From IMG/VR virus record IMGVR_UViG_3300044723_003200: a stretch of DNA of 20,000 bases; one strand, 5' to 3'. Positions 344 to 20,000 of the stretch are shown here, one piece after another. The position numbers and the translations under genes are program-made. The notes under the pieces were generated by a model. The model did no database searches, was not told the DNA's origin, and saw nothing but the letters and a program-made list of their open reading frames with translations. The stretch is from an uncultured virus (IMG/VR IMGVR_UViG_3300044723_003200) (Duplodnaviria > Heunggongvirae > Uroviricota > Caudoviricetes). The number at the start of each line of letters is the position of its first letter. The stretch's first letter is position 1.

Positions 344-351
344 TATACATA
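344..351 (+). promoter_or_regulatory. Probable T4-type late promoter variant (TATACATA) upstream of the hypothetical-glycosyltransferase-oxygenase cluster
   Basis: One mismatch to TATAAATA, in the short intergenic gap after the stop at 336. Confidence 0.5.
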
Positions 352-376
352 TTTGTGAATGTCGATGGAGAATATA

Positions 377-829
377 ATGGCAGACAGAAAATGGTTAGAT
401 AATGCTTTTTGGGAGACTCCTCAAAAAGAACTCTTGAATGCTATCAGTGAGACCACTGAGAACAATCGCGAGGTTCGTCAAGTACACAAGATCCCCAAGA
501 CCAACGAAGACGGCACCGAGAACGAAATGTTCAAAGAAGTGCTTGAGTATCTTGGTGAGGATGTGATTGATGCGTCCAGCAAGAAACGCCTGGAAAAAAA
601 GCAGGCCGAAGCTGAGATGGAGAAGGAGAAACAACTCGAACAAGAACGAGCACGTAAACTCGAAAAACTGTTTGAGTACAAACTGGAAACCTTTGAAGTC
701 CCAGAAATCAAGGAATCCAAGAATCGTCTGTTGAAGTCTAAACTCAGGCGTTCTAAGTCTATTCCTGAAGTCAACCTATACGCCATGCTGATCGTGAAGG
801 ACACTATTGATAATGCAGAATCAGAGTAA
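377..829 (+). CDS. Hypothetical charged, helical protein (about 150 aa) with a central coiled-coil-like stretch
   Basis: Track ORF 359..829. ATG at 377 is preferred because GGAG at 367-370 is a well-spaced Shine-Dalgarno. E/K-rich segment SKKRLEKKQAEAEMEKEKQLEQERARKLEKL. Its stop overlaps the start of the next gene. Confidence 0.8.
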   Translation: MADRKWLDNAFWETPQKELLNAISETTENNREVRQVHKIPKTNEDGTENEMFKEVLEYLGEDVIDASSKKRLEKKQAEAEMEKEKQLEQERARKLEKLFEYKLETFEVPEIKESKNRLLKSKLRRSKSIPEVNLYAMLIVKDTIDNAESE

Positions 830-1559
830 AGGATTCGTAATTGTTGCATCTAACAATGTAAACTTTTACGTCTACGCAGTCAACCTCATTGAGTCCATCA
901 AGGACTGGTATCCTGAAGCACAAATCACTCTTGTAACCGAAGAGCGTTTCATCGATGAACGTGCGGATGAGGCTGATAACATCATCTTCTGTGATAACCA
1001 TTATAGGGCTAAACTCTGGGGTATGGCGCAATCTCCATATGATATCACGATGTATGTTGACGCTGACATGGACTGTGAGCACGAAGATATTGCAAAGGTC
1101 TGGGATGAGATGAAAGACTATGATATGGTCTTTCATGAGTTGACTGAAGAGCGTGAAAAGTTCTATGCTATCCGAGAGTTTCGATACAAGGGTAGGATGG
1201 AAAAATATACTCTGTGTGGTGGCGTTTGTTTATATCGTAGTAGTAATCCTCTGGTCATGGAATTCATGCGAGAGTGGTTTGAACTGTTCAACAAACAAAT
1301 GAACAACATATGGGAACCAGAGGGGTTTGACAAAAAGCAGTGGAACAATGATCTGAAACACTTCGATCAGACAACGCTGTGGTGGCTGACTGAAAAGGTA
1401 GATAAATATAAAGATCTCAAGATTGGTATCTTTGAGGATGACATTCGATGGAATTACTTTACTCAATATCAATACGAGAATCTACACTCTAAAGAAGGCA
1501 AACCACCAATCCTGAGACACTACTCTGGATCACTGCATAAGGATCGACTCTTGGTATGA
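813..1559 (+). CDS. GT-A fold glycosyltransferase, GT8-like
   Basis: N-terminal strand-helix GFVIVAS...YAVNLIESIK, DxD motif YVDADM, and GT8-like downstream motifs CGGVCLY, FDQTTL, IRWNY and ILRHYSG. Start is ATG 813 or TTG 807 (SD AAGGA at 797-801). ATGA overlap with the next gene. Confidence 0.8.
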   Translation: MQNQSKGFVIVASNNVNFYVYAVNLIESIKDWYPEAQITLVTEERFIDERADEADNIIFCDNHYRAKLWGMAQSPYDITMYVDADMDCEHEDIAKVWDEMKDYDMVFHELTEEREKFYAIREFRYKGRMEKYTLCGGVCLYRSSNPLVMEFMREWFELFNKQMNNIWEPEGFDKKQWNNDLKHFDQTTLWWLTEKVDKYKDLKIGIFEDDIRWNYFTQYQYENLHSKEGKPPILRHYSGSLHKDRLLV

Positions 1560-2230
1560 AAGATGTTCCGATTGAAAATAAAGATGTTCTGGTTGCACTG
1601 GACAACTTTCTTTGGTATTATGAAAACAAGGATATCGTAGCAAAGACTCTGAGACTGCATGGCGAACCTGATAAACGGGAACACTACATATCTGCGAAAT
1701 ATCGGGACTCTGTCATTGCAGAAGATGAACGTCATGAGGGATTCCCCGAAGATTGCTATGCGTATGCTTTGAAGTCAGATAGGTTGCACTTTGATGATGA
1801 ACACAATACATCACCATTAGCAGCCAGTTTCTACTCACGGTACAGTCAGTACAATGAAGAATTGTGCACCCTGTTATCAACACGTAACAATGCACTGACG
1901 CAACTATACCCGCCAGGCGGATACATCTCTTGGCACAACAATGCGAATGCCTCTGCCTACAACATCATTTTCTCATGGTCTGAGACCGGAGAAGGAAACT
2001 TTCGATATGTTGATGGACATACCGGCAGAGAAGTCGTGATGCAGGATAAGAAAGGGTGGCAGTGCAAAGCAGGATATTTCGGAGCCTATGGGGAACCTTG
2101 GTACAATAGAGTCTATCATGCTGCGGAAACTGACTGTTGGAGGATCACTGTGTCCTACATGTTTGATCGTAGTGACATGGCCTCTGGTCTCCAAGAGGAC
2201 ATTATAGAGGAAATAATGTCCGATTTCTAG
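1556..2230 (+). CDS. 2OG-Fe(II) oxygenase-like (double-stranded beta-helix) protein with an H-x-N first motif
   Basis: YPPGGYISWHNN (His codon at 1934), distal His in YHAA (2117), and R-x-T in WRITVS (Arg at 2141) follow the HxD...H...RxS layout of this superfamily. Confidence 0.7.
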   Translation: MKDVPIENKDVLVALDNFLWYYENKDIVAKTLRLHGEPDKREHYISAKYRDSVIAEDERHEGFPEDCYAYALKSDRLHFDDEHNTSPLAASFYSRYSQYNEELCTLLSTRNNALTQLYPPGGYISWHNNANASAYNIIFSWSETGEGNFRYVDGHTGREVVMQDKKGWQCKAGYFGAYGEPWYNRVYHAAETDCWRITVSYMFDRSDMASGLQEDIIEEIMSDF

Positions 2231-2251
2231 TTCGTTCAACGACCCAATCCT

Positions 2252-2259
2252 TATAAATA
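2252..2259 (+). promoter_or_regulatory. T4-type late promoter (gp55-dependent)
   Basis: Exact TATAAATA in the intergenic region upstream of the adaptor and fibre genes. Confidence 0.85.
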
Positions 2260-2298
2260 AACAAAGAAAATAAATGTTTTTTATACGGGTTATAATCG

Positions 2299-2664
2299 AT
2301 GCTACCGAACTACGAAGACATCACCATTCAGCAAGGCACAGATGTAGCAATAGAAGTACATCTGGTCACTGATAGTGACGGAGCGTTCAATCTGACCAAC
2401 AGGTCAGTCGCTGCGAAGATGAAAAGAAACTACGCTGACTCTGCTGATGATCCTGATACAGTAGCCTTCAATGCAATTGTAGCTACCCCTCCCAGTGATG
2501 GTATCGTCACACTCTCTTTAACCAACACCCAAACTGATGCCTTAAAAACCCGTGGGCGATATGTATATGATGTAGAGATATCTTATACTGACAGTGATGA
2601 AAATACTATCATTCAACGAGTCCTTGAAGGACAGATTGAAGTTTCACCGTCTGTCACGAAATAA
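2299..2664 (+). CDS. Small beta-sandwich virion protein (BppU-N-like, possible fibre adaptor), 121 aa
   Basis: Motifs ITIQQGTD, GIVTLSLTNTQT, GRYVYDVEI and RVLEGQIEVSPSVT resemble small structural proteins found before fibre genes in aquatic T4-like phages. Recognised from memory, not searched. Confidence 0.6.
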   Translation: MLPNYEDITIQQGTDVAIEVHLVTDSDGAFNLTNRSVAAKMKRNYADSADDPDTVAFNAIVATPPSDGIVTLSLTNTQTDALKTRGRYVYDVEISYTDSDENTIIQRVLEGQIEVSPSVTK

Positions 2665-2676
2665 AGGAAAGACCTA

Positions 2677-5600
2677 ATGGCTGAGAAGATCATTGTAAAG
2701 AAGGTAGTAGTCGGAACACCCATAAAACGGGTAACGGCAGGTGCTTTTGCTATCTCAAACTTGGGTGGTGTTGATGTAACTGCTACGGAATCCGATGGTT
2801 CTATTCTTGCTTACAATCAAGTAAGCGGAAAATACGAGGTAACTAATCTCCGCACTGATGCAAATATCACTGCCGAGTTTGACAGCGAACAAAATAAATA
2901 TACTTTCGGCTTGACAAATACTTCTTTTACTGGTAGTATTATCCCTGATAGCAACGAAGCATACGACCTTGGTAGTTCATCCAACAAATGGCGTGACCTC
3001 TATCTCAGTGGAGATACAATCGTCCTTGGATCAATATCCTTAAAAGACAGTGGTGGTCAATTAGTCTTTGTTGACAGTGATGGAAACAAGACAGGTCTTG
3101 GTCTAAGCCTCATAACCAACAACACCAGTATTCTATCTCTGGATAGTGACACGGGTGTATTTACATTCAACGACTCTGACATTGCACGAACAGATGTCAA
3201 CGAAGTATTTCACGCTGGCCTGACAGTCAACGGCGGCGCAACTGTCGATAGTGCGACCATCACAACTCTCGCCAACACAACTTTAATTGGTAGTCAAGCC
3301 ACTCTTGATAGTGCCAATATCGGTACGCTTCGGGTTACAGGTAATACTGTGCTTGATGGCAATCTGACTATCAGTGGTACTCAGACGATAATCAATACTG
3401 AGACTATCAATCTAGCCGACAACACGATCATTCTCAACTCTAATGCAACCGGCACTCCCACAGAAGATGCCGGTATTGAGATTGAACGGGGTGACCTCGC
3501 AAATGTATCCATTCTATGGGATGAGGGGGAGAAACACTGGACACTAGGCAGCGAAAATTTAGTAACAACTGGTAAACTTCTCTTCGGTAATGTTTATGAT
3601 TCAGAGGGGGCTCTTCCGTCCGCATCTGTCTATCATGGTATGTACGCACATGTGCACGCTACTGGTCGTGGATACTTTGCCCATGCGGGTGACTGGCACA
3701 AACTGATTGATTCGGACACCACAACAAGACAACAGGTCTATACTCTGTCCTCTGAAGTCGCTGACATCACCGATGGTACAATCACTACTCTTTATAACAG
3801 TAACTTATCTGGTGGTCAGGCCACGTTTGATAGTGCACACTCTACGAATCTTACGGCAGCCACGGCTACCCTAGACTCTGCAACGGCAACTAATCTTGCA
3901 AGTACTACACTTACGGGTGGCACTGCCACATTTGACTCCGCGACAGTAACAAACCTAGCAACAACCGAACTGACTGGATCTCAAGCAACCTTTGACTCTG
4001 CGACAGTAACAAACCTAGCAACAACCGAACTGACTGGATCTCAAGCAACCTTTGACTCTGCGACGATCACAAACATCAGATTCGACAATATTGATGCACA
4101 GACAACGGCAACGATTAGAAACATATTCAGTGCTTCGGGTGATCTGTCATATGATAGTGCAACTGGTCAGTTCTCCTTTGATGTTGAAACAGTATACACT
4201 AAGGCTAACTTCGATAGTGATTTGGGTGATGCGAATACAGGACAACTACCTGAAGGCACCAACTTATATTATACTACCGCACGAGCAGACAGTGACTTCG
4301 ATGTTAGACTTGCAACAAAAACAACATCGGATGTTGCAGAGGGCACAAATCTCTACTACACTCAGGTAAGGTTCGACTCTGCGTTTGGTGATAAGACCAC
4401 TACGGACTTGACCGAAGGTACGAACCTTTACTATACCACTGCACGATTCGATGCTGCACTTGCTACTAAAACAACAGCGGATGTTGCCGAACATAATAGT
4501 AATCTTTACTATACTACTGCACGAGCAGATAGTGACGCAAAGGCATCATTACTTGTAAACGATACGGGTGGTGATGGGTCTCTGACCTATGACAGTGCTA
4601 CAGGTGTCTTTACCTATACTGGGCCCAGTGCGGCAGAGGTAAGGGCACATTTGAGTGCTAGTGGAGATTTATCCTACAATAGTTCTACTGGTGTATTCAG
4701 TGTTGATATAGAGGATGTCTATACTCAGGCAAACTTTGATAGTGACTTCCTGAAGAGACTAGAATCACAGATTGATAGTGCGGGTATTACCACATTAACG
4801 AATACTAATGCAACTATCACAAGCCTGACCGGAAGTCAAGCAACTTTTGACTCTGCAAACATTACCTCTCTAGGTGCAGTAGCAGGTGTTGATGCGACAA
4901 CCACATCAACAATCCGTGGATTGTTCAGTTCATCCGGTGACTTAACCTATAACAGTGGAACAGGTCAGTTCTCCTTTGATGTAGAAGATGTCTACACCAA
5001 GGCAAACTTTGACTCTGATCTGGGAGATGCCAACACAGGGCAACTACCTGAAGGGAGTAATCTCTACTATACGGACGCAAGAGCAAGAAATGCAATCGGT
5101 CTGTCTGATGTTGGTGGGGATGGTTCACTTACATACGATTCGGCAACGGGTAGATTTACCTACACCGGCCCGAGTGCTGCGGAAGTAAGAGCACACTTAA
5201 CTGCAAACAAAGGACTCTCTGTATCTAATGGAGAGTTCAATATTGACTCAGCAAATGTCAGAGGGATGTTCTCTGCAAGTGGAAGTCTAAGTTATAACTC
5301 ATCTACAGGTGCTTTCTCCTATACGGATTCAGATAGAACGGCATCTCAGATAAAGGGATTATTCTCTGCGACTGATGCTGGTGGTGATGGAAGTTTCTCA
5401 TATAGTGATGGGGTCTTTACTTACACAGGGCCTTCTGCTTCAGAAGCAAGAGCGCATTTCTCTGGTGGAACTGGCGTCACAATCACTGATGGTTCGATTG
5501 CGATTGGTCAGTCTGTTGGAACGACAGACAATGTAACCTTCGCACAAACCACCATGGATTCAGCCATTGTTGATGGTGTTAACTTTAATGTTCTAACATC

Positions 5601-8600
5601 AAGACATACAAATGCTGCTGGAACATTGTATTTTGACTCTGATCATCAAAAGGGTCTATCACTTGTTCTTGATACTCAGAATAATCCGAATCCAGATGTA
5701 ACTCTTAATATTGGTCAAGAGATATTCCTCTATGTCCATAACTTAACTGGTGCTCAGATTGACAACGGTCAAGCAGTCTATATCTCTGGAACTGCACACG
5801 GTAAACACCCTCAAGTATCTCTTGCGAGAGCGGATGCGTCTGGAACTGCTCAACCTACTGGTCTTGCGACTATGGATATTCCAGATGGCGCACACGGTTG
5901 GGTAACTCGTTATGGTATCGTCCGTGATGTAAACACTGGTGGTCTGACTGCTGGTTCGACATTATATCTTTCCGCTGATTCTGCTGGTGAGTGGACAACA
6001 ACAGAAGTCACTGTGGATACTGGTTATCCATATCATATTGGTCGTATTCTAACCGCTGACTCAACCGCTGGCACAATCCTTGTAGATGGTTTCAGTGAAC
6101 ACTACGAATATCTGCGTATTGAAGATAGACTGAAAGTCTCCGGTAGACTTGAAGCTGATTCGGCATCACTTCTGAATGTTCAGTTTGATATTACAACCTT
6201 TGATTCACATCAACCATATAGTGAAGGTCTGTTATATTACGATAATGCACACAAGACACTGAACTATAATGATGACATCACTGGTATGGTTCACGAGATT
6301 GGTCTCCAAGAACACCAGCGTGTATTCAACAATAGTGGCGCAACCATTAAGAAAGGTAATGCACTATACTTTAGTGGTAACTACACATCAGGCGATATTG
6401 ACGTTCCGACTGTTGGTCTTGCAGATGCAACAGATGTAAACGCATATAACGCTCAAGGTATTGCTGCTCAAGATATTCCAAACAACTCTTATGGTCACTG
6501 TTTGATTGCTGGTCAGTTGACTAATGTTAATACTGCACACTTGAGTGACGGAACTAACTTCTTCGTGTCCGTGACTACACCTGGCTCACACCAGAATGCA
6601 TCTCCGACATATCCAAACTTCCCTATGTGTTTAGGTTGGGTTGTTAAAACTGGTGATTCAGACAATGGTATCTTACTTGTCAATCAACAGAATCACTCTG
6701 TTCGTTCTTTCCGTGTTCAAACTTCTGCACATATTGGTACAGACTTACAGGTTGATGGTAACTTAACGATTTTAGGTAGTCAGACCACTGTAGGTACATC
6801 TAATGTAACTCAGGGTGCGCCATTCTATCGTCTTAATGAAGGTGATGCGATTGGTGAAGCAGGAACGACATTTACTGGTTCTGGCCTTGACGATGCGTTC
6901 TTTGCTGGTCACTTTACTGGAACATCTTCACAAACCTACTATGTCAAGATTGATGGTGTAGGAACTGGTGGTGGTGGCGTTGATACTTTTGCGGTTGCTC
7001 TTGGTAGTGATAGTGAGTTTGCATCTCCTGTTCTTACAAAACAGAATATTACAGGTGACGCACAACTTATTCACTCTGCGGATAATATCTCCGTTGAGTT
7101 TGGTGCGACTACAGGCCACGATAGTGGTGATAGATGGTCTGGTACTGCTTCTCCTGTTAATGTAGATACTGGTTTCTTCACAAACCGAAACACTGGAACA
7201 AGTGGTGTCGGTTATACCCATATGGGTCTATGGTTTGATGTCACTGACGAGAAATGGAAACTCGTAGACGAATATGACTCAACACCTACAGGAACAATTA
7301 ACACTGCGGATTCCTCATTCAGTCTTGCGACTCTAGTTGCAGATACGTTTGAAGGTAGTCTGATTGGTGCGGTAACAGGTAATGCTCAAACTGCTTCTGC
7401 TCTTGCAAGTGGTCAAAACTTCTCCTTAACAGGTGATATCACTGCATCTGCTGTATCCTTTGATGGAACAGGTGCGGTTCAATTGACAACCGCATACAAC
7501 CCTGGCTCTATTGTTAACGCAGACATCAATGCTGCTGCTGCGATTGCGGATTCTAAACTCGCAACCATTAGTACTGCGGGTAAGGTAAACAACTCTGCGA
7601 CCACTGCTACTGATGCAAATACTGGTTCTGCGATTGTAACACGTGATGCATCTGGTAACTTTGCGGCAGGAACGATTACTGCTGAACTAGATCGTTCTGC
7701 AAACACTACGGTTGAGGCTGGGGTCTACGGATCAACCACTGCAATCCCTGTATTGACGATTGACTCGAATGGTTATGTTGATAGTGCAGGAACGGTTGGC
7801 GTATCTGGTATCACGGGTGTTGACTTTGATAGTTCAAACGGTACTCTGACCATTCAGACTTCCACTGGTAACTTTACGGATGTACTTACGCTTGATCCGT
7901 TTACTACTGCGGATTTGACTGAAAATACAAACCTCTATCATACGGATGCCAGAGCAAGGGCAGCCATTTCCGTGACCGATGCGGGCGGTGATGGTTCACT
8001 CGCCTACAACGATGGTACGGGTGTACTGACATACACTGGCCCTAGTGCTTCCGAAGTAAGAGCGCATCTAACCGCCAACAAGGGTCTGTCTGTAACATCA
8101 GGTGAGTTCAACATTGACTCTGCTAATGTTCGTGGTATGTTCTCTGGTGGTACGGGTATCACATACAACTCCGGTACTGGTGCGATTACCACAACCGATG
8201 GTGACATTGTCCACGACAACTTGAGTGGATTTGTTGCTAACGAACACATCGATCACACTTCAGTCTCCGTGACTGCGGGTGCAGGTTTGACTGGTGGTGG
8301 TACTATTGCCGCAACCAGAACTATTGATGTAGTTGGTGGTAAGGGTATCATTGCGAATGCAAATGATATTCAGATAGACTCTGCGAATGTCCGAGGAATG
8401 TTCTCCGCTGGTGGTGATCTAGCATACAACAGTGGTACTGGTGAGTTTAGTGTAACGAAGTTCACTACAGCAGACGCAAGAAGTGCTATATCAGCAGGAG
8501 GTGATTTATCATATAATTCATCGACTGGTGTAATGAGCTATACAAAACAGACTGCAAGTGAATTGTTGACTGCGGTTAAAACTGTAGACGGTGCATCAAG

Positions 8601-8688
8601 TGGATTGGACGCTGACTTACTTGATGGTCAAGAAGGTTCTTATTATCGAATCAATGTATACAATAACGCAGGTACTCTGTTAAACTAA
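2677..8688 (+). CDS. Large repetitive fibre protein (2003 aa), tail or neck fibre
   Basis: T/S/G/A/D-rich. Contains IIPDSNEAYDLGSSSNKWRDLYLS, repeated EGTNLYYTxAR and GDGSLTYDSATGVFTYTGPSAAEVRAH modules, and the C-terminal fibre motif SGLDADLLDG. SD AAGGA upstream. Sits immediately before gp13, where T4 has gp12 and wac. Confidence 0.85.
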   Translation: MAEKIIVKKVVVGTPIKRVTAGAFAISNLGGVDVTATESDGSILAYNQVSGKYEVTNLRTDANITAEFDSEQNKYTFGLTNTSFTGSIIPDSNEAYDLGSSSNKWRDLYLSGDTIVLGSISLKDSGGQLVFVDSDGNKTGLGLSLITNNTSILSLDSDTGVFTFNDSDIARTDVNEVFHAGLTVNGGATVDSATITTLANTTLIGSQATLDSANIGTLRVTGNTVLDGNLTISGTQTIINTETINLADNTIILNSNATGTPTEDAGIEIERGDLANVSILWDEGEKHWTLGSENLVTTGKLLFGNVYDSEGALPSASVYHGMYAHVHATGRGYFAHAGDWHKLIDSDTTTRQQVYTLSSEVADITDGTITTLYNSNLSGGQATFDSAHSTNLTAATATLDSATATNLASTTLTGGTATFDSATVTNLATTELTGSQATFDSATVTNLATTELTGSQATFDSATITNIRFDNIDAQTTATIRNIFSASGDLSYDSATGQFSFDVETVYTKANFDSDLGDANTGQLPEGTNLYYTTARADSDFDVRLATKTTSDVAEGTNLYYTQVRFDSAFGDKTTTDLTEGTNLYYTTARFDAALATKTTADVAEHNSNLYYTTARADSDAKASLLVNDTGGDGSLTYDSATGVFTYTGPSAAEVRAHLSASGDLSYNSSTGVFSVDIEDVYTQANFDSDFLKRLESQIDSAGITTLTNTNATITSLTGSQATFDSANITSLGAVAGVDATTTSTIRGLFSSSGDLTYNSGTGQFSFDVEDVYTKANFDSDLGDANTGQLPEGSNLYYTDARARNAIGLSDVGGDGSLTYDSATGRFTYTGPSAAEVRAHLTANKGLSVSNGEFNIDSANVRGMFSASGSLSYNSSTGAFSYTDSDRTASQIKGLFSATDAGGDGSFSYSDGVFTYTGPSASEARAHFSGGTGVTITDGSIAIGQSVGTTDNVTFAQTTMDSAIVDGVNFNVLTSRHTNAAGTLYFDSDHQKGLSLVLDTQNNPNPDVTLNIGQEIFLYVHNLTGAQIDNGQAVYISGTAHGKHPQVSLARADASGTAQPTGLATMDIPDGAHGWVTRYGIVRDVNTGGLTAGSTLYLSADSAGEWTTTEVTVDTGYPYHIGRILTADSTAGTILVDGFSEHYEYLRIEDRLKVSGRLEADSASLLNVQFDITTFDSHQPYSEGLLYYDNAHKTLNYNDDITGMVHEIGLQEHQRVFNNSGATIKKGNALYFSGNYTSGDIDVPTVGLADATDVNAYNAQGIAAQDIPNNSYGHCLIAGQLTNVNTAHLSDGTNFFVSVTTPGSHQNASPTYPNFPMCLGWVVKTGDSDNGILLVNQQNHSVRSFRVQTSAHIGTDLQVDGNLTILGSQTTVGTSNVTQGAPFYRLNEGDAIGEAGTTFTGSGLDDAFFAGHFTGTSSQTYYVKIDGVGTGGGGVDTFAVALGSDSEFASPVLTKQNITGDAQLIHSADNISVEFGATTGHDSGDRWSGTASPVNVDTGFFTNRNTGTSGVGYTHMGLWFDVTDEKWKLVDEYDSTPTGTINTADSSFSLATLVADTFEGSLIGAVTGNAQTASALASGQNFSLTGDITASAVSFDGTGAVQLTTAYNPGSIVNADINAAAAIADSKLATISTAGKVNNSATTATDANTGSAIVTRDASGNFAAGTITAELDRSANTTVEAGVYGSTTAIPVLTIDSNGYVDSAGTVGVSGITGVDFDSSNGTLTIQTSTGNFTDVLTLDPFTTADLTENTNLYHTDARARAAISVTDAGGDGSLAYNDGTGVLTYTGPSASEVRAHLTANKGLSVTSGEFNIDSANVRGMFSGGTGITYNSGTGAITTTDGDIVHDNLSGFVANEHIDHTSVSVTAGAGLTGGGTIAATRTIDVVGGKGIIANANDIQIDSANVRGMFSAGGDLAYNSGTGEFSVTKFTTADARSAISAGGDLSYNSSTGVMSYTKQTASELLTAVKTVDGASSGLDADLLDGQEGSYYRINVYNNAGTLLN
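3931..4064 (+). repeat. 60-bp in-frame tandem repeat (2 full copies plus a partial third) encoding FDSATVTNLATTELTGSQAT
   Basis: 3931-3990 and 3991-4050 differ at one base (gactcc/gactct). The third copy starts at 4051 (tttgactctgcgac). More degenerate copies lie upstream at about 3826-3930. Confidence 0.95.
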
Positions 8689-8689
8689 G

Positions 8690-8697
8690 GATAAATA
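8690..8697 (+). promoter_or_regulatory. Probable late promoter variant (GATAAATA) upstream of gp13
   Basis: One mismatch to TATAAATA, ending 5 nt before the ATG at 8703. Confidence 0.55.
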
Positions 8698-8702
8698 GTT
8701 AG

Positions 8703-9500
8703 ATGTCAAGTTATCAAAAAATCGGAAGTAGATCCGAATTCATCGAATATTGTCTCCGTAAATTGGGCGCGCCTGTCATTGAAATTAACGTCGATGATGA
8801 ACAAATCGAAGATCGTGTAAACGATGCTTTACAATTATTTACTGAGTATGATGGTGACGGTAGTTTCCGCGCATACTCAGTGAAGACGATAACTCAGGAT
8901 ATAATTGATCGTGGCTACATTGATTTTGATGAAGATGGTGTAAACCCCAACATTAGTTCTGATAACATTCTGAGTGTTCTTCGTGTATTCCCAATCGATG
9001 ACCATGCATCAAGCTCTAACTTCTTTGATATCAAATATCAGATGCGCCTGAATGATATGTGGGACTTAAACACTGGTATTGGGGATCTAGCATACTTTGA
9101 ACAGATGCAACAATATCTGTCTACCATTGATATGAAATTGACCGGACACCCACAGATCCAGTACGTCCAAGCGGGAAATACTTTGAACATCTTTGGTGAC
9201 ATTGCAGGCAGCCATGGAGATCTTCAAGTAGGTGATAAGATTTTGATTGAACTGTATATTGCTACCGATCCGAATGGAAATGGTAGGGTATATAACAACA
9301 TCTTCTTGAAAGAGTATGCTACAGCACTTATTAAAGAACAATGGGGTGCGAACCTAATAAAGTTTGACGGAATGACCCTGCCGGGCGGTGTCCAGTTAAA
9401 TGGTCGCCAAATTTATGAGGACGCAAAGCAAGAGATCGAAGTAATTCGTCAACGAATATATAATGAGTATGACACGCCACCGGACTTCTTCGTAGGATAA
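8703..9500 (+). CDS. gp13: Neck protein gp13
   Basis: YCLRKLGAPVIEINVDDEQIEDR at the N-terminus and KEQWGANLIKFDGMTLPGGVQLNG near the C-terminus; T4 synteny. Confidence 0.95.
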   Translation: MSSYQKIGSRSEFIEYCLRKLGAPVIEINVDDEQIEDRVNDALQLFTEYDGDGSFRAYSVKTITQDIIDRGYIDFDEDGVNPNISSDNILSVLRVFPIDDHASSSNFFDIKYQMRLNDMWDLNTGIGDLAYFEQMQQYLSTIDMKLTGHPQIQYVQAGNTLNIFGDIAGSHGDLQVGDKILIELYIATDPNGNGRVYNNIFLKEYATALIKEQWGANLIKFDGMTLPGGVQLNGRQIYEDAKQEIEVIRQRIYNEYDTPPDFFVG

Positions 9501-9504
9501 TATA

Positions 9505-10377: not shown

Positions 10378-11156
10378 TGTTTGGAACATGGTTTTATCAT
10401 AAGAGAGTCAGAACAGCAGTGTCCGTATTCGGATCTATGTTCAATAACCTCTATGTCTTGCGAGAGAACTCGGCTGGTGAGATTATCTCACAGGTTAAAG
10501 TACCTCTGTCTTATGCACCAAAAAGAAACTTCATCTCGCGACTAGAACAGATGAGTAACGGTGAAGAAGCAGAGCGCAGACTTGCCATCAAGTTGCCTCG
10601 CATGTCGTTTGAGATTACGAACATGCAGTACGATGCAACTCGACAGTTACCCAAGACCAATGCAATCTCCAAGGTTGTGGCTGACACGGTAACCAGTAGA
10701 CGCAAACTCTATACGTCTACCCCGTATACGATTTCATTTCAGTTGAATGTATACTCCAAGTCACAGGATGATGCACTACAGATCGTAGAACAGATCTTAC
10801 CATACTTTACGCCACAATATACCTTGACAATCAAACCGTTTGCTGATATAGACACTCTAACAGAAGATGTTCCTGTCACATTGTCTGGTGTGAGTTTTTC
10901 GGATGACTTTGAGGGTGCACTGGAACAGCGTAGGACAATCATATATACATTAGACTTTGAAATGAAGATTGCTCTGTACGGGCCAGAATCTAATAAGTCA
11001 ATCATCCGTGATGTTCGCAACAACTTGTTCTTACAAGAGGCGGGTCTGGCAGACAGTGATGTGTATATTAAGACTCTGAAGATCACTCCTGACCCATCTT
11101 CAGTAAATGCTGATAGTGACTATGGATTCATCGAAACCGATTTGGATAGTGCATAA
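10377..11156 (+). CDS. gp15: Tail sheath stabilizer / tail terminator gp15
   Basis: MFGTWFYH, KVPLSYAPK, LPRMSFE, QIVEQILPYFTP and RRTIIYTLDF; synteny. Confidence 0.95.
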   Translation: MFGTWFYHKRVRTAVSVFGSMFNNLYVLRENSAGEIISQVKVPLSYAPKRNFISRLEQMSNGEEAERRLAIKLPRMSFEITNMQYDATRQLPKTNAISKVVADTVTSRRKLYTSTPYTISFQLNVYSKSQDDALQIVEQILPYFTPQYTLTIKPFADIDTLTEDVPVTLSGVSFSDDFEGALEQRRTIIYTLDFEMKIALYGPESNKSIIRDVRNNLFLQEAGLADSDVYIKTLKITPDPSSVNADSDYGFIETDLDSA

Positions 11157-11500
11157 TGAGTGATGAAAAAAGAATCAAGGATGACTACGAATACTCTCGT
11201 GATACCTACTACGATATTCTAGAGAAGGGTAAAGAGAGCATGGAACTGATGATTGAGGTCGCTCGTGAGTCAGAGCATCCTCGTGCCTTTGAGGTTCTCT
11301 CGACCATGATGAAGAACATGGCTGATGTCAACGACAAGTTGATGGATTTGAATAAGAAGAACAAAGAAATCAACACAAAAGATGAACCCAAGCAGGTAGG
11401 CCATACCACAAACAATTTATTCGTAGGCACCACGACTGATTTGCAGCGACTTATTAATGATGAAAAGAACATTATAGATGTTGAATCCAAACCAGAATGA
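11156..11500 (+). CDS. gp16: Terminase small subunit gp16
   Basis: DDYEYSR, ARESEHPRAFEV and NNLFVGTTTDLQ; directly before the large subunit. Confidence 0.92.
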   Translation: MSDEKRIKDDYEYSRDTYYDILEKGKESMELMIEVARESEHPRAFEVLSTMMKNMADVNDKLMDLNKKNKEINTKDEPKQVGHTTNNLFVGTTTDLQRLINDEKNIIDVESKPE

Positions 11501-13097
11501 GTCCTATCTTGGCAATATCAATGTCAAGCGAGACGGAGTTCAACACAATTTCACCGAAGAAGAGATCAAGGAATATATCAAGTGTTCCAAAGACCCCGTA
11601 TACTTTTGTAAAAAATATCTAAAAGTCATCTCCCTTGATGATGGATTAGTGCCATTCAATCTATACCCATATCAGGAGAAGATGTTTGATCATTTCAACA
11701 ACAACCGATTTAGCATTGTCCTTGCATGTAGACAGTCTGGTAAGTCTATATCTTCTGTCGGTTATCTCATTTGGTTTGCTTGTTTTCACAGTGAAAAAAC
11801 TATTGCAATTCTAGCAAACAAGGGTGCGACTGCGAGGGAGATGTTGTCTCGTGTCACCTTGATGTTAGAGAACCTACCATTCTTTCTCCAGCCAGGATGC
11901 AAGGCACTCAACAAGGGTTCTATTGAGTTTAGTAACAACTCACGCATCATCGCTGCGGCAACGTCCGGTAGTTCTATTCGTGGTATGTCTGTGAACCTAC
12001 TGTTCTTGGACGAGTTCGCTTTTGTGGAACGTGCGAATGAGTTCTATACATCCACCTATCCGGTAATCTCGGCTGGTAAAGATACTAAGGTGATTATCAC
12101 ATCTACCGCAAATGGTATCGGTAATACCTTCCACAAGATATGGGAGGGAGCGGTTCAGAAGGTGAACGAGTTCGTCCCCTTCACGGTAAACTGGAACGAT
12201 GTTCCTGGCCGCGACGAGGAATGGAAGCGACAAACTATCGCCAACACTTCGCAGTTACAGTTCGACCAAGAATTTGGTAACACCTTCTTTGGTACAGGTG
12301 ATACACTCATCAACGCCGAGACATTATTGTCGTTCAGGGCAAAACCGCCACAACAAGCGCTTGAGGGGGCGGATCTACTCGTATACGATACCCCACAGAA
12401 AGGACATGAATATGTTATGACTGTGGACGTATCAAAGGGAAGAGGACAGGATTATTCTACGTTTAACGTAATCGACATTAGCATGAGACCTTTCAAACAG
12501 GTTGCTGTCTATCGCAATAATACTATATCTCCAATACTCTTTCCTAATATTATCTATAAGTATGCGAAACTCTGGAATGAGGCATATGTGGTTATTGAAT
12601 CAAATGACCAAGGTACGTTGGTATGTCAGGGCCTCTACCAAGATCTAGAGTATGAGAACATCCACATGGAATCTGCTATCAAGGCAGACCGTATCGGCAT
12701 TGAGATGAATCGCAAAGTAAAACGTCTTGGATGTTCTGCGATCAAAGATATCCTAGAAGAGAATAAACTGGATATCGTGGACGAGAATACTATCCTAGAA
12801 ATATCTACCTTTGTGTCCAAGGGGCAATCCTACGAGGCCTCAGACGGTAACCACGATGACTTGATGATGAATCTGGTCATGTTTGGTTACTTTGTATCTA
12901 CGCAGTTCTTTGCTGACCTGACCGACATAAACCTAAAAGAAATCATGTTTGCAAAGAAGATGAAAGAGATCGAAGACGATGTCCCGCCCGTTGGCTTCAT
13001 CGATGATGGGCTGGAAGAAGTCAGACATGAAGAACAACAAAAATCCATGGGATGGCACAACTTCGAGGGTGCAGACATCGGCGTAGAAGAATGGTAA
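11478..13097 (+). CDS. gp17: Terminase large subunit gp17
   Basis: LYPYQ adenine-binding motif, Walker A CRQSGKS, Walker B LLFLDEFAF, ITSTANG, and nuclease motifs VDVSKGRGQDYS and HDDLMM. No intron or intein is evident. Confidence 0.98.
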   Translation: MLNPNQNESYLGNINVKRDGVQHNFTEEEIKEYIKCSKDPVYFCKKYLKVISLDDGLVPFNLYPYQEKMFDHFNNNRFSIVLACRQSGKSISSVGYLIWFACFHSEKTIAILANKGATAREMLSRVTLMLENLPFFLQPGCKALNKGSIEFSNNSRIIAAATSGSSIRGMSVNLLFLDEFAFVERANEFYTSTYPVISAGKDTKVIITSTANGIGNTFHKIWEGAVQKVNEFVPFTVNWNDVPGRDEEWKRQTIANTSQLQFDQEFGNTFFGTGDTLINAETLLSFRAKPPQQALEGADLLVYDTPQKGHEYVMTVDVSKGRGQDYSTFNVIDISMRPFKQVAVYRNNTISPILFPNIIYKYAKLWNEAYVVIESNDQGTLVCQGLYQDLEYENIHMESAIKADRIGIEMNRKVKRLGCSAIKDILEENKLDIVDENTILEISTFVSKGQSYEASDGNHDDLMMNLVMFGYFVSTQFFADLTDINLKEIMFAKKMKEIEDDVPPVGFIDDGLEEVRHEEQQKSMGWHNFEGADIGVEEW

Positions 13098-13099
13098 TG

Positions 13100-13107
13100 T
13101 ATAAATA
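13100..13107 (+). promoter_or_regulatory. T4-type late promoter for genes 18-19
   Basis: Exact TATAAATA just after the gp17 stop codon. Confidence 0.88.
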
Positions 13108-13166
13108 AAGGTATGTGAAAATAACCGTATTATGAAAACTTATAATAGATACAAAGGATAAAAGTT

Positions 13167-14936
13167 ATGGCACTTTTTACACCCTCTGCTTCTCCTGCTG
13201 TAACAGTAAAAGAAATTGACCTGACGGGCGTGGTGCCTAATGTTCAAACTTCTACTGGTGCATTTGTGGGGAACTTTGGTTGGGGGCCTGTTGGAGTTGC
13301 AACTCTAGTCTCAGATGAATCTGGGCTCGTAAGTACCTTCTCGGCACCAACCGACGATAATACGGTAGATTTCCATTCTGCTGCGTATTTTTTACGTTAC
13401 TCAAACTCTATGTTTGTTGTTCGTGAGCAGGATAGTGATGGCGTTAACGCTGTTGCTAACCATACTTCCCTAGGCAGTTTGACTGCACAAGCAATCAATA
13501 ACTTGGACGCATTTGAAGACCTATCTCTTGATAGTTCTGACGGTGCATTTATCGCTAAATATCCAGGCTCACTTGGTAACTCTCTAAAAATCTCCATCGT
13601 GGGTTCTGACTCCGATAATGGTGGGACAACCAACTTTAACGCATGGGCATATAAAGATGAGTTCGATGCTGCTCCTAGCACATCATCCTTCGTATCCGCT
13701 CTCGGTGGTAAGAACGACGAAATTCACGTTGCTGTTATCGACGAAGATGGCGAGATTACGGGGACTGCTGGAACAATCCTCGAAACCTTCCCATTCTTGT
13801 CTGTTGCTAAAAACGCAAAAGCTTCGGACGGAACATCTAACTACTTCAAAGATGTTCTGAAACTCCGTTCTTCTTGGGTCTATGCTGGTGTAGCTCACAC
13901 AGGTGACTCCGCTAGTGTATCCGATTTCATCGGTGCAAACTGGGGCGCAAACGCGACGACTGGATCTGAGGACTTCAAATCAGACTTCAAATACTCATCC
14001 GCACAAAGCACATGGTCATTCACCTCTGGTGTGACTTCAAGTTCTTTGGGAACTGATGACATTCTACGTGGTTTTGACAAGTTTGAGGACAAAGAGAATA
14101 TCGAAGTAGACTTCTTGATTGCCCCCGAATCACTCGCAGACGCAACCGCAACTACGATTGTAAATGACCTTGTATCTATTGCAGGTACTACTCGCAAGGA
14201 CTGTGTGGCAGTTGCCTCACCTTCTCGTGCGGCTGTAGTCACCACTGGTACTAACACCGCTATCTTAGCGTGTAACAATACCTACACTAAGTCATCCTAC
14301 TTAGTACAAGACAACAACTACTTGAAAGTCTTTGATAAGTACAACGACAAGTACATCAAGATTCCTGCTGCATCATCCACTGCGGGTCTCATGGCTGCTA
14401 CCGACTTAGTCGCTGCACCATGGTTCTCTCCTGCTGGTTCGAGACGAGGACGATATCAGGGTATTACCGATATCATCGTGTCTCCGACGAAGGCAGAACG
14501 AGATGCATTGTACAAAGCAGGTATCAACCCGATTGCCAATATCCCAGGCGAGGGTATCATGCTCTTTGGTGATAAGACCAACGAGTCACGGCCTTCTGCA
14601 TTCGACCGAATCAATGTTCGTCGTTTGTTCTTGGGTGTTGAAAGGGCAATCGCAATTGCAGGACGCAACGTAATGTTTGAGTTCAACGACGAGTTTACTC
14701 GTGCGGAGTTCGTGAACATCGTTGAACCATTCCTTCGCGAGATTCAAGGACGCCGTGGTATCACGGACTTCCGAGTAGTCTGCGACGAAACGAATAACAC
14801 GCCTGCTGTTGTTGACCGCAACGAATTTATCGCTAGCATCTTCATCAAACCTGCCCGTTCTATCAACTACGTAACATTGAACTTCGTAGCGGTAAGGACT
14901 GGCGTCGAGTTTGAAGAAGTCGTTGGCACAGTATAA
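13167..14936 (+). CDS. gp18: Tail sheath protein gp18
   Basis: SPAVTVKEIDLT, FGWGP, AKYPGSLGNSL, PWFSPAG, FDRINVRRLF, FEFNDEFTR and IKPARSINYVTLNFVA. Confidence 0.98.
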   Translation: MALFTPSASPAVTVKEIDLTGVVPNVQTSTGAFVGNFGWGPVGVATLVSDESGLVSTFSAPTDDNTVDFHSAAYFLRYSNSMFVVREQDSDGVNAVANHTSLGSLTAQAINNLDAFEDLSLDSSDGAFIAKYPGSLGNSLKISIVGSDSDNGGTTNFNAWAYKDEFDAAPSTSSFVSALGGKNDEIHVAVIDEDGEITGTAGTILETFPFLSVAKNAKASDGTSNYFKDVLKLRSSWVYAGVAHTGDSASVSDFIGANWGANATTGSEDFKSDFKYSSAQSTWSFTSGVTSSSLGTDDILRGFDKFEDKENIEVDFLIAPESLADATATTIVNDLVSIAGTTRKDCVAVASPSRAAVVTTGTNTAILACNNTYTKSSYLVQDNNYLKVFDKYNDKYIKIPAASSTAGLMAATDLVAAPWFSPAGSRRGRYQGITDIIVSPTKAERDALYKAGINPIANIPGEGIMLFGDKTNESRPSAFDRINVRRLFLGVERAIAIAGRNVMFEFNDEFTRAEFVNIVEPFLREIQGRRGITDFRVVCDETNNTPAVVDRNEFIASIFIKPARSINYVTLNFVAVRTGVEFEEVVGTV

Positions 14937-17328: not shown

Positions 17329-17357
17329 TATTCAACCCTCCCTGTGACGCTAAGCTT

Positions 17358-17386: not shown

Positions 17387-17398
17387 GAACTTTATTCT

Positions 17399-17406
17399 TA
17401 TAAATA
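17399..17406 (+). promoter_or_regulatory. T4-type late promoter for the head assembly genes
   Basis: Exact TATAAATA, ending 5 nt before the ATG at 17412. Confidence 0.88.
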
Positions 17407-17411
17407 ATACT

Positions 17412-18292: not shown

Positions 18293-18302
18293 GGAGTCTA
18301 AA

Positions 18303-19328
18303 ATGACTGAAGAAGAAAATCTAGAGGTCGAGCTCCACGATGAAGTAACAGACGAAATCGTGGAAGAAACTCTCGAAGAGGCAAAGGCGCAAGACCCGAA
18401 TGCGACTGACGAAGATGAGTCACAAGCAACCGTGGACAAAGCGTCTGATGCCACAAAACAAGCTCCTGCTCCAAAAACGAAAGCGGGTATGATTAATGCT
18501 ATGAGCATGAAGTTACATTCTATGAAGAAGAATGACCTTCAAGCGGCATACGGTAAAATGATGGGTGAAGAAGTTGAAGAAGCAGAGGACGCAATCGTGG
18601 AAGCACAGATTGATACCTCTGCTGAACTGGATGCATTAGTCGAGTCTGAAGCTACACTCAGTGATGAGTTCAAAGCAAAAACCGCAGTAATCTTTGAAGC
18701 AGCTGTGAAGTCGAAACTGTCTGAAGAAGTAGACCGTATCGAAGCACAGTACAAGGAAGAGTTGGCAGAAGAAATTTCTTCTACTAAGTCAGAACTTGTA
18801 GAAAAAGTAGACAGCTACCTAAACTATGTAGTTGAAACTTGGATGGAAGAGAACCAAATTGCAATCCAAAACGGTCTTCGTACCGAGATTGCTGAGACCT
18901 TCATGGACAAGATGAAAGATCTGTTCGTAGAGTCTTACATTGAAGTACCTGAATCCAAGGTAGACCTAGTTGACGAACTGGCTGAGTCAGTAGAAGAGTT
19001 GGAAACACGACTCAACGAAACTACTCAGAAAGTTATTGATACTACCGAGGAACTGGAAGTATACAAGCGTGACACGATCATTCGTGAAGCGTCACGTGAC
19101 CTTGCAGAAACTCAAGTTGAAAAACTGAAGTCGCTCGTAGAGAGTGTTGACTTTGATGACGAAGATTCTTTCGCATCCAAGGTCAAGACGATCAAAGAGT
19201 CATACTTCACTAAAGAAATCACTGATGGTGAAGAAGTAGAACAAGTAATGGAAGATGCTGACCAAGAAGTCGAAGTATCCTCTGTCATGGAATCCTACTT
19301 GGCAACCATCCGTAAAACTGCAAAATAA
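18303..19328 (+). CDS. gp22: Prohead core scaffolding protein gp22
   Basis: Acidic coiled coil with LSDEFKAKTAVIFEAAV, KVDSYLNYVVETWMEEN and KVKTIKESYF; between gp21 and gp23; SD AAGGAG. Confidence 0.95.
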   Translation: MTEEENLEVELHDEVTDEIVEETLEEAKAQDPNATDEDESQATVDKASDATKQAPAPKTKAGMINAMSMKLHSMKKNDLQAAYGKMMGEEVEEAEDAIVEAQIDTSAELDALVESEATLSDEFKAKTAVIFEAAVKSKLSEEVDRIEAQYKEELAEEISSTKSELVEKVDSYLNYVVETWMEENQIAIQNGLRTEIAETFMDKMKDLFVESYIEVPESKVDLVDELAESVEELETRLNETTQKVIDTTEELEVYKRDTIIREASRDLAETQVEKLKSLVESVDFDDEDSFASKVKTIKESYFTKEITDGEEVEQVMEDADQEVEVSSVMESYLATIRKTAK

Positions 19329-19337
19329 GGAATAACA

Positions 19338-20000
19338 ATGCAATCTTACGATAGTCTAATCGAAAAATGGGCTCCCGTCCTTGACGAAGCCTCTGCTGGT
19401 GAGATCAAAGATCCCCACCGCCGTGCAGTCACCGCTGCAATCTTGGAGAACCAAGAGAAAGCAATCGCTGAAGAGCGTGCTGCTTCTGCTGGTTTCCTGT
19501 CTGAAAACGCTGCAGCTCCTGCTAACGCAACGGGTTCTGTAAACAACTTTGACCCCGTGTTGATCTCACTGGTTCGTCGTGCTATGCCTAACCTCATCGC
19601 ATACGACATCTGTGGTGTACAACCCATGAACGGCCCTACGGGTCTTATCTTCGCAATGAAGTCGCGCTACCAAGGTGGTTCTACTTCTAACCGTGAAGCA
19701 CTGTTCAACGAAGCAGAAACCCAGTTCTCTGGTGACTCTGGTGGTACTCATGACAGTGACAATCCTTCTGGTTTCAACGATGACAGCGATGGCATCGATT
19801 CCGAAGGTGCACGTTTGACCGCACTTGCTGCAGGCGGTATGCCTACGGCCGATGCTGAAGCATTGGGTCGCACTGGTGGTTCTTCCTTCAATGAGATGGG
19901 ATTCACCATTGAGCGTCAAACGGTTACTGCTAAGAGCCGTGCACTGAAGGCGGAATACACGCTGGAACTGGCACAAGACCTCAAGGCAATCCACGGTCTG
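19338..20000 (+). CDS. gp23: Major capsid protein gp23 (first 221 codons, 3' truncated by the window)
   Basis: Absent from the ORF track because there is no stop in the window. Translation: MQSYDSLIEKWAPVLDE...AILENQE...FDPVLISLVRRAMPNLIAYDICGVQPMNGPTGLIFAMKSRY...EMGFTIERQTVTAKSRALKAEYTLELAQDLKAIHGL. Likely gp21 cleavage after FLSE (residue 56). Confidence 0.98.
   Translation, partial: MQSYDSLIEKWAPVLDEASAGEIKDPHRRAVTAAILENQEKAIAEERAASAGFLSENAAAPANATGSVNNFDPVLISLVRRAMPNLIAYDICGVQPMNGPTGLIFAMKSRYQGGSTSNREALFNEAETQFSGDSGGTHDSDNPSGFNDDSDGIDSEGARLTALAAGGMPTADAEALGRTGGSSFNEMGFTIERQTVTAKSRALKAEYTLELAQDLKAIHGL

Follow-up and report, generated by a model that had tools for sequence, protein, structure and literature searches.

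A Ser-specific D-S-[D/A] excess in peripheral virion proteins of an uncultured marine T4-like phage: a possible structural signature beside a glycosyltransferase-like gene cassette

Is a short peptide motif that crowds the tail fibre of a phage a tag for modification, or part of how the fibre is built? The question is raised by a stretch of 20,000 nucleotides (the window) from an uncultured virus, IMG/VR record IMGVR_UViG_3300044723_003200, which covers the late module for fibre, neck and head of a marine T4-like phage. A preliminary description of this DNA had proposed that Asp-Ser (DS) followed by Ala, Asp, Glu or Gly (DS[ADEG]) marks the outward-facing virion proteins as acceptor sequon of a glycosyltransferase (GT), encoded with an oxygenase just upstream of the fibre. 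Our analysis confirmed that the DS excess is real and stronger than an artefact of repeats or composition, and supported its restriction to peripheral virion proteins, the motif proper being DS[AD]. The excess does not follow the GT/oxygenase cassette of the window but characterises a whole phage clade, in which nearly every member has some gene of the GT8-like kind near its fibre genes. With somewhat less than even confidence, we read DS[AD] as a structural signature and not as a tag.

The 2003-amino-acid (aa) tail fibre (2677-8688, plus strand) carries 45 DS sites, many of them in repeat families, comprising 20 DSA, 12 DSD, 3 DSE, 2 DSG and 8 others, together with nine Asp-Thr (DT) dipeptides; the earlier hand counts of DS and DT were all reproduced exactly. 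Shuffled sequences gave 16.3 DS (standard deviation 3.7), and the observed number was reached in 0 of 5000 shuffles. DS[ADEG] amounted to 37 vs. 5.2 and DT to 9 vs. 22.7, so that pure composition is ruled out as the cause. DS was also the top over-represented dipeptide among the 192 testable ones of the fibre (z 7.1), with FD and SA next. The repeat families holding DS read QATFDSAT.TNL, NLYYT.AR.DSD, ANFDSD, G(D)LSY[DN]S[ASG]TG.F and EFNIDSANVRGMFS. By in-register identity of their flanks, the 45 sites fell into 26 context families (15, 4 and 3 sites plus 23 singletons), three in-register repeat families thus holding 22 of them. When the fibre was collapsed to 588 non-redundant residues, 14 DS vs. 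4.1 and 8 DS[ADEG] vs. 1.3 remained, values that serve as an extreme lower bound only, since the single-linkage collapse over-merges. A pure repeat artefact is ruled out as well, because the excess outlasts both the repeat collapse and the grouping into context families and is dispersed over proteins; the suggestion that enrichment goes beyond composition and repeats was therefore borne out. At the DS sites the Ser codons numbered TCN 40 and AGY 31 (372/149 overall), and both Asp codons and many third codons were used. Because both Ser codon families occur, the signal lies at the protein level, as had been proposed, and not in a DNA repeat or a GANTC-type site; a DNA-level cause of either sort is ruled out.

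Beyond the fibre, the sites are few and unevenly placed. The 121-aa LtfC-like beta-sandwich protein (2299-2664; phrog_1084, phrog_3304), a fibre adaptor or assembly protein, has three DS (DSD, DSA, DSD) with 0.27 expected from shuffles, and the gp15-like tail sheath stabiliser (10377-11156) three with 0.37 expected (DSD226, DSD246, DSA257). Two occur in the gp14-like neck protein (9505-10377; DSA185, DSD215), four in the gp18-like tail sheath (13167-14936), all within its variable N-terminal half (residues 89-247), and five in the part of the major capsid protein gp23 that the window encodes, its first 221 residues (19338-20000), four of which (DSG, DSD, DSD, DSE) stand in a D/S/G-rich loop of residues 133-156 (19734-19805). 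DS is absent from the gp13-like neck protein (8703-9500), the small and large terminase subunits gp16 and gp17 (11156-13097), gp19, gp21, two small open reading frames (ORFs), the GT and a 156-aa ORF, a zero-DS group that was put together post hoc. Between 14947 and 19328, the gp19 tube, gp20 portal, two small prohead ORFs, gp21 protease and gp22 scaffold each have no DS[ADEG]; in the portal, the scaffold and a 224-aa ORF there are seven DS, and the residues after them are I, V, L, S, Y, F and V. When all non-fibre ORFs of the window were pooled, DS as such was not enriched (26 vs. 24.3); only DS[ADEG] was, about twofold (16 vs. 7.2, P=0.0026), for a motif that had been defined post hoc.

A set of 22 virion-module ORFs (9284 aa) was informative about the motif itself, being assembled without hand selection from the window and the upstream proteins of the near-identical 26.8-kb contig G001 and leaving out the main fibre. 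In this set, DSD occurred 26 times vs. 4.2 (P=6e-13, in nine of the 22 proteins) and DSA 13 times vs. 4.3; DSG (5/4.1), DSE (1/3.3), DTD (2/4.8), DTA, NSD and ESD were not enriched. As only DSD and DSA exceed expectation there, the true motif is D-S-[D/A] and specific for Ser. The class DS[A/D/E/G] that had been put forward thus stands for D and A and falls for G and E.

Genome-wide tests were run on five relatives, namely G002 (complete, with a GT 78% identical to that of the window), G004, G005, G006 and phage C48C1. In G002, DS[ADEG] was enriched in the adaptor plus fibre (28 vs. 4.9, z 11) and in the distal-tail block (25 vs. 8.8, z 5.7), not significantly in the gp13-gp23 block (10 vs. 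6.3, z 1.6), and was below expectation in 138 non-structural ORFs (23 vs. 30.8). The marking of virion proteins that had been described accordingly holds for distal tail, adaptor and fibre, and is weak for gp13-gp23; since that block is not significant, the marking of capsid, neck and sheath is the weakest part of the claim. Individually enriched ORFs numbered 4/181 in G002, 4/177 in G004, 1/177 in G005, 2/175 in C48C1 and 5/193 in G006.

Several further observations concern the distribution of DS. The gp23 loop lies within query residues ~114-157, which are unaligned between blocks that end at residue 133 of T4 gp23 and restart at 219; the T4 stretch 133-219 is presumably the surface insertion domain. 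In the window (19680-19810) only ~44 unaligned residues, a D/S/G-rich low-complexity loop, stand between the T4-aligned blocks. The inner baseplate block of G002 has far fewer DS than expected (98.4-108.6 kb; 5 vs. 19.5, z -3.6), and the large ORF directly upstream of the cassette is poor in DS in G004 (86638-91695, 1 vs. 6.6) and G005 (74713-79380, 0 vs. 5.8). The top-enriched protein of C48C1 is a gp9/10-like 'tail fiber connector' of 1568 aa (record 126305-131011; L115:14306-19012), a tandem array of long, probably helical repeats with several DS[E/D/A/K] each and 31 DS in total.

What, then, does the surrounding sequence of the sites suggest? A hydrophobic residue precedes 59% of 70 DS[AD] sites, compared with 30% for background and 28% for other Asp residues. 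For DSA (n=32), hydrophobic residues were found in 72% at -1, 47% at +4 and 62% at +7. Such a -1, +4, +7 pattern is what a helix N-terminus shows when it is capped by Asp/Ser and held by a hydrophobic staple, and D-S-D-G is a classic turn; the sites thus resemble helix N-cap/hydrophobic-staple motifs and Asx/ST turns in having a hydrophobic residue, Asp-Ser, a small or acidic residue, and hydrophobics 4-5 and 7-8 later, or the D-S-D-G turn. In a hand-picked subset of nine proteins, SDG was the second most enriched tripeptide (13 vs. 2.26), therefore pointing to D-S-D-G. Furthermore, Asp and Asn interchange in one fibre repeat family (YDSATG vs. YNSSTG and YNSGTG), and in distant relatives the DSDG of the adaptor aligns with PDG, ADG or TDG. 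Within the close clade, the DS positions of adaptor, gp14 and gp15 are conserved and the third residue drifts among A, S, G and D; these DS residues were not significantly more conserved than other Asp and Ser residues of the three proteins (0.84 vs. 0.79 and 0.60, P=0.15).

On this basis, the D-S-A of the fibre may open short repeat units as a capped helix N-terminus with a hydrophobic staple, and the D-S-D of globular proteins, usually followed by Gly, may form an Asx/Ser beta-turn or a cation-binding loop. The motif would have spread through the clade as repeats were amplified and modules passed between fibre genes, and the cassette of the 156-aa ORF, the GT8-like protein and the oxygenase-like protein would have a separate role, acting on other fibre residues or on a host glycan. 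We favour the structural signature because of the context of the sites, the D/N alternation, the in-register repeats, the presence of stronger repeat excesses that have nothing to do with a sequon, the lack of tracking with the cassette and the lack of extra conservation.

The stronger repeat excesses came from a look-elsewhere control. Fibre-repeat dipeptides and tripeptides such as NY, GN, TR, GNY, PRP, KIT and QKG reached P values of 1e-17 to 1e-37, each in only one to four proteins, and proteins neighbouring the fibre exceeded the DS signal (NY z 9.4-11.7, GN up to 12.8, GNY P=3e-37). These neighbouring fibre-like proteins (G001/L005 1095-5527, minus strand; window 1-336; C48C1 41356-51054, rotated) consist of G-N-Y/F ... 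T-R repeats with z values of 5-13 for NY, GN and TR, GNY counting 49 vs. 3.7 in G002, far above DS there. The window part (1-336, plus strand) encodes the C-terminal 111 aa of such a protein, which has a full length of 801 aa in G001 and two DS (DSL, DSG). In addition, QKG, GQK and KGQ amount to 26-27 vs. 2.1 in the structural set of G006, and EPE and FVG to 32-34 vs. ~3 in G004 (60-125 kb), excesses that probably come from further fibre repeat families. Another control concerned avoidance. DS[AD] in non-virion proteins reached 0.34-0.66x of expectation in the clade (0.34-0.46x in four clade genomes; 5 vs. 14.5 in G002), and the outgroups Syn9, T4 and P-TIM40 were equally low (DSA 0.29-0.81x, DSD 0.41-0.81x). 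Avoidance of the motif in non-virion proteins was therefore dropped as evidence for a sequon, the outgroups showing similar deficits.

A number of observations weigh against a structural signature as the whole explanation. First, capping and turn motifs are universal, and alone they predict no clade-specific, Ser-only, 4- to 10-fold excess. DSD is up about sixfold across nine of the 22 virion proteins, which have unrelated folds, and DTD, NSD and ESD are not; in G002, Thr is excluded (DT[ADEG] 3 vs. 11.9, in the distal-tail block, and 0 vs. 5.4), which a purely structural reading leaves unexplained. Second, the breadth of the DSD spread is unusual. In Syn9, phiM7 and T4, tripeptides spread over at least five proteins reach only P ~1e-5, whereas in the lineage of the window and in G002, G006 and G004 DSD is found in 9-11 proteins, with P values from 2e-6 to 6e-13; the clade also has the repeat-derived RNF, TGN and GDY spread over five to seven proteins. 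Third, in whole genomes the ORFs with DS[ADEG] at P<0.01 numbered 0/178 in Syn9, 0/244 in T4 and 0/186 in P-TIM40, and phages free of the GT family have DT, NA, NS, DN or DA at the homologous repeat positions, so DS is not structurally required there. Fourth, genes for sugar-related and protein-modifying enzymes occur in the fibre module throughout the clade.

These same points, that DS is not structurally required elsewhere, that the excess is Ser-only, dispersed and peripheral, and that the clade keeps genes for modifying enzymes, keep alive a glycosylation reading, which we regard as possible but rather doubtful. It holds that O-glycosylation would fall on the Ser of D-S-[D/A] where caps and turns are exposed, and would be carried out by phage GT8-like retaining enzymes using host UDP (uridine diphosphate)-sugar late in infection, in the cytoplasm, where phage virion proteins assemble. 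The enzyme here would be the product of 807-1559 and, elsewhere in the clade, that of another GT8-like pair, and the fibre would thereby gain a coat of sugar that could shield it, help it adhere or stabilise it. Its clade-wide form, a sugar coat on fibres, peripheral baseplate, neck and capsid loop at hydrophobic-Asp-Ser-Asp/Ala sites laid down by interchangeable enzyme cassettes in the same slot, is likewise tentative. These cassettes would combine the GT with an oxygenase-like protein in the window, and in other members a GT8 pair with genes for amino-sugar and carbamoyl transfer or with radical-SAM enzymes. In favour of glycosylation are the Ser-specific excess confined to peripheral virion proteins and absent from the 138 non-structural ORFs of G002, and the dispersal of the motif over unrelated folds; the D/N alternation in one repeat family and the lack of any specific avoidance in non-virion proteins, where outgroups are equally low, speak against it. 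The glycosylation itself remains putative, being deduced from sequence.

The candidate enzyme belongs to a tight cassette of three plus-strand genes (359-829, 807-1559 and 1556-2230) upstream of the adaptor and fibre. The first, the 156-aa ORF (359-829), overlaps the next by 23 nt and is syntenic in phage C48C1; it had no ESM Atlas match, and none of the three gene products had a significant match in Pfam or PHROGs. The second (807-1559) encodes a 250-aa protein whose AlphaFold2 (AF2) model has a predicted local distance difference test score (pLDDT) of 90.8. Its top Foldseek matches are LgtC, glycogenin, the UGGT catalytic domain and GlyE (E 2e-8 to 5e-7; template modelling (TM) score 0.5-0.6; 9-15% sequence identity), and D85-x-D87, D187-Q188 and H238 are invariant among 32 relatives down to 53% identity. 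No match to PF01501 (Glyco_transf_8) was obtained at E<=10, the best related family being PF00535 at E=0.14 and 12.5 bits, below the cut-off. The assignment as a GT8-like glycosyltransferase of the GT-A fold therefore holds at the level of the predicted fold. Sequence searches of the PDB with profiles of the GT and the third cassette protein and with the fibre gave chance-level matches only. The GT family comprises 368 proteins of ~250 aa at E<=0.001, which lie on phage-sized contigs only; 312 viral contigs with the family were confirmed. A GT8-like fold with an invariant DxD, whose nearest folds include, besides LgtC, enzymes with protein substrates by title (glycogenin, UGGT and GlyE), fits a protein-glycosylating role, as does the position of the gene in the fibre operon, on the same strand and with overlapping frames; this synteny is kept in 80 of the 80 retrieved GT-bearing loci. 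Of these loci, 72 have at least one downstream ORF of at least 400 aa, and the other eight end too soon after the GT.

If the GT were to read the motif, enzyme and excess should go together, and here the evidence is divided. The fibres that follow the GT show a 5-9x excess if the GT shares at least 72% identity with that of the window, and one of ~1-3x at 57-60% identity. In the GT-bearing C48C1, large non-repeat virion proteins have 0 DS[ADEG] vs. 3.2, 3.5 and 3.6 expected, and in locus L078, which has the GT, the fibre is at expectation (5 vs. 5.4). Anchoring on the adaptor instead gave a second set of 113 loci, of which 86 were distinct and had a large ORF downstream. The DS[AD] excess was 3.8x in the 57 distinct loci with a window-type cassette, 9.5x in the 12 with a different GT8-like pair and no homologue of the third cassette protein, 6.5x in the ten with neither enzyme set within the locus and at least 4.5 kb of upstream sequence available, and 7.2x in the seven that were too short to judge. 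Thus, the proposed co-occurrence with this particular cluster failed, the excess being stronger without the cassette than with it. Among the loci with the different pair, L205 and L208 carry a GT8-like gene and are not enriched. The most enriched fibre of all was that of G008 (DS 85 vs. 19.4, mostly in unique contexts), for which no GT8 match was found in the available 52% of the genome, and the lineages of L243 and L250 are also DS-rich with no GT seen so far; exceptions to the association consequently exist in both directions, with GT8-bearing unenriched loci (L078, L205, L208) and an enriched genome without a GT8 gene seen.

Relatives outside the cassette-bearing group show a mixed picture as well. 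The GT family was not found in the outgroups, and PF01501 had no match in Syn9, P-TIM40, phiM7 or T4. These outgroups show no DS excess and no DS at homologous positions, which favours a sequon: the 50-kb structural modules of S-SCSM1, phiM7 and T4 held no ORF with DS[ADEG] at P<0.01, and positional orthologues of the fibre had DS counts of 21/18.9 in P-TIM40 and 9/10.2 in Syn9, the fibres of CRP-6 and CRP-207 being unenriched too. The expected link between enrichment and the enzymes accordingly held for the outgroups and, with regard to this cassette, failed for cassette-free clade loci, which are enriched, though most carry another GT8-like pair. That cassette-free clade members have other GT8-like genes near the fibre module again favours glycosylation. 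G006 (91% complete) is without both cassette families and has five PF01501 matches, and G011 and G012 carry GT8 pairs; on the other hand, the GT8-like pair of G006 is on the strand opposite to the late genes. G009 and G010 were considered as GT-free controls because they lack PF01501 matches and were rejected, since phmmer with the GT8-like frames of G006 gave a homologue (E ~5e-45). Because all GT-bearing genomes form one clade, the association between enzyme and motif is essentially one phylogenetic contrast, which counts against the sequon. In sum, DS[ADEG] as acceptor sequon of this GT is not established, because the class is in fact [D/A], the link to the cassette fails, the sites have a structural context and the oxygenase-like protein may be inactive.

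The exchange of enzyme genes is itself of note. The fibre module of G006 (L221, G006 140001-159934; ~631-14526) contains an opposite-strand island with a DegT/DnrJ-type sugar aminotransferase (E 1e-80), a carbamoyltransferase (E 7e-68) and enzymes of the radical S-adenosylmethionine (radical-SAM)/SPASM type; in several cassette-free relatives (L221, L205:449-9957, L200:3-5381), radical-SAM/SPASM, QueC-like and paired GT8-like genes lie upstream of the adaptor and fibre. It appears that cassettes of modification enzymes replace one another in the fibre module, which would make it a hot spot for such exchange. The aminotransferase and carbamoyltransferase island of G006 is counted on the side of glycosylation.

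The third cassette gene (1556-2230) encodes a 224-aa double-stranded beta-helix (DSBH) protein with the predicted fold of 2-oxoglutarate (2OG)-Fe(II) oxygenases. Its model (pLDDT 94.3) is closest to prolyl 4-hydroxylases (P4H). VIA-align gave Z 10.2 to the P. putida P4H, all 50 listed chains being of the 2OG-oxygenase fold by title, and Foldseek gave E ~5e-6 with a TM score of only 0.3-0.4. Invariant residues are H127-N128-N129, H188 and R196. The HxD part of the iron triad was not found, an invariant Asn standing where the carboxylate is expected in a register taken from the strand positions of the model; R196 lies eight residues past H188, the basic residue that binds the C5-carboxylate of 2OG being expected ~8-10 after the distal His. 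With the triad carboxylate missing, 'oxygenase' is a statement about fold and not activity, and oxygenase activity appears doubtful from the sequence. The earlier gene calls, a T4-like late module, a GT8-like fold with DxD and an oxygenase-type DSBH fold, hence all stood, and the call of an oxygenase stood for its fold and not for its HxD carboxylate. The invariant H-N-N in place of the H-x-D/E of 2OG oxygenases could mean that the protein is a pseudo-enzyme, has a variant metal site or serves in binding. Three places in C48C1 match the DSBH protein. Cyanophage S-SCSM1 has annotated 2OG-Fe(II) oxygenase genes within its baseplate/fibre module (L116 20510-21061 and 1-531), so this clade is not alone in having genes of the oxygenase fold among its fibre genes.

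A second modification reading starts from this protein. The DSBH protein would beta-hydroxylate the Asp, or would hydroxylate a nearby residue that is then glycosylated, following the logic of hydroxylation and subsequent glycosylation as in collagen, Skp1 and mimivirus, with radical-SAM/SPASM enzymes as possible modifiers in relatives. The protein-hydroxylase-like fold (prolyl hydroxylases at the top, AspH at Z 8.2-8.3), the translational coupling of the DSBH gene to the GT gene and the radical-SAM/SPASM clusters that relatives carry in this slot ahead of the adaptor are in keeping with it. We nevertheless consider it very unlikely, given that the HxD carboxylate is an invariant Asn, that the DSBH gene is absent from the 12 most enriched loci, which have the other GT8 pair, that no Pro or Lys motif stands out, and that L205 and L208, with radical-SAM/SPASM genes, are unenriched. 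Collagen-like G-X-Y targets for a hydroxylase-like protein were sought in the upstream proteins and none was found.

Alternatively, the cassette may have no relation to virion proteins and serve DNA hypermodification, by the TET/JBP plus GT logic, or change a host surface glycan; either role, which we judge unlikely, would be compatible with a structural motif. The fold list of the DSBH protein includes AlkB homologues and NgTET1 (Z 7.6-9.1), the lipooligosaccharide galactosyltransferase LgtC is the top fold match of the GT, and phage GTs that modify DNA are well documented in the available text of PMC13326640. Against this role speak the place of the cassette within the late fibre operon, the better rank of prolyl hydroxylases compared with TET and AlkB among the fold matches, and an incomplete HxD motif. 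Moreover, no ThyA-type hydroxymethyl-pyrimidine synthase was found in G002, G006, G004 or C48C1 by a search whose T4 positive control matched, which weakens the DNA route.

The gene map places these findings in a T4-like frame. All real genes of the window are on the plus strand and follow the late-module order gp13-gp23, with Pfam matches for gp14, gp15, gp16, gp17, gp18, gp19, gp20, gp21, gp22 and gp23 and with gp13 and others also recognised via PHROGs; the adaptor and fibre precede this module. A perfect TATAAATA motif, which we take to be the T4 late promoter, occurs three times on the plus strand (2252, 13100 and 17399; 0.69 expected by chance), each copy directly upstream of a gene start, namely the adaptor, gp18 and a small ORF at 17412. 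The copy at 2252-2259 stands upstream of the adaptor and fibre genes, and that the cassette itself is expressed late is suggested only by the operon in which it lies. G001 reaches ~16 kb further upstream and encodes there gp6-, gp8- and gp9/10-like baseplate proteins, a DUF4815 giant protein and more fibre-like proteins. The sole isolate with DNA or protein similarity in the region is phage C48C1, filed under Kyanoviridae and syntenic, on which our search of the open-access literature found no relevant paper. No psbA was present in complete or nearly complete relatives of 137-160 kb. Segments of the fibre (2677-8688) share 35-61% identity with the tail fibres of two Roseobacter podophages, CRP-6 and CRP-207, and the fibres of many cyanophages are in a like range (35-60%); the likeness to CRP-6 and CRP-207 may be a hint, from sequence similarity, of a marine alphaproteobacterial host.

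If the sites are glycosylated, they would amount to sequon-based virion glycosylation in T4-like phages, abundant in ocean metagenomes (368 proteins, 312 contigs) and a source of a small soluble enzyme with a short peptide tag; such a system would bear on host recognition, on particle stability in seawater and on how fibre sequences are read. If the motif is structural, the case would show that a short-motif excess in phage fibres beside GT genes is not by itself evidence for a sequon. In the open-access literature searched, no sequon-based system was described for T4-like phages, so comparison has to be made with systems of other kinds.

The closest of these in setting are mycobacteriophages, whose virion glycans have reportedly been shown by chemical means. 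The available text of PMC12582341 cites O-glycosylation of mycobacteriophage virions by phage-encoded GTs (Freeman et al., 2023, Cell Host Microbe). As there, a tailed phage has its own GT gene among or beside its structural genes, proposed to decorate its own virion proteins. The host, the phage type (here a T4-like myovirus) and the enzyme (here a small GT8-like GT-A protein) differ, a tripeptide scattered over fibres is the acceptor proposed here, and the present case consists of genes only. With regard to the enzyme, the GT shares with LgtC, glycogenin and GlyE, and with the UGGT domain of the same fold, the GT-A fold, an invariant DxD, a D-Q pair and a C-terminal His; unlike them, it has only 250 aa, 9-15% identity and no PF01501 match, and its family is found on phage-sized contigs only.

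Bacterial systems offer parallels in the acceptors. Those of the TibC/Aah enzymes are said to be Ser residues in beta-helix repeats. According to the available text of PMC4358343, these heptosyltransferases hyperglycosylate the TibA and AIDA-I autotransporters, so that a neighbouring dedicated cytoplasmic enzyme acts at many sites of a repeat-built fibrous adhesin, the logic also proposed here; TibC is a dodecameric heptosyltransferase with an iron-finger motif, whereas the GT of the window is a small GT-A protein outside that family. Finally, the preliminary description had given the O-glycosylation sequon of Bacteroidota as D-(S/T)-x, which is broader than the general motif D-S/T-A/L/V/I/M/T in the available text of PMC12871550, where it was assessed in predicted non-cytoplasmic proteins. 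That motif is at variance with DSD, the most enriched form here, and it accepts Thr, which is depleted here, but the two systems share an Asp before the acceptor or putative acceptor Ser, and DSA fits the published motif.

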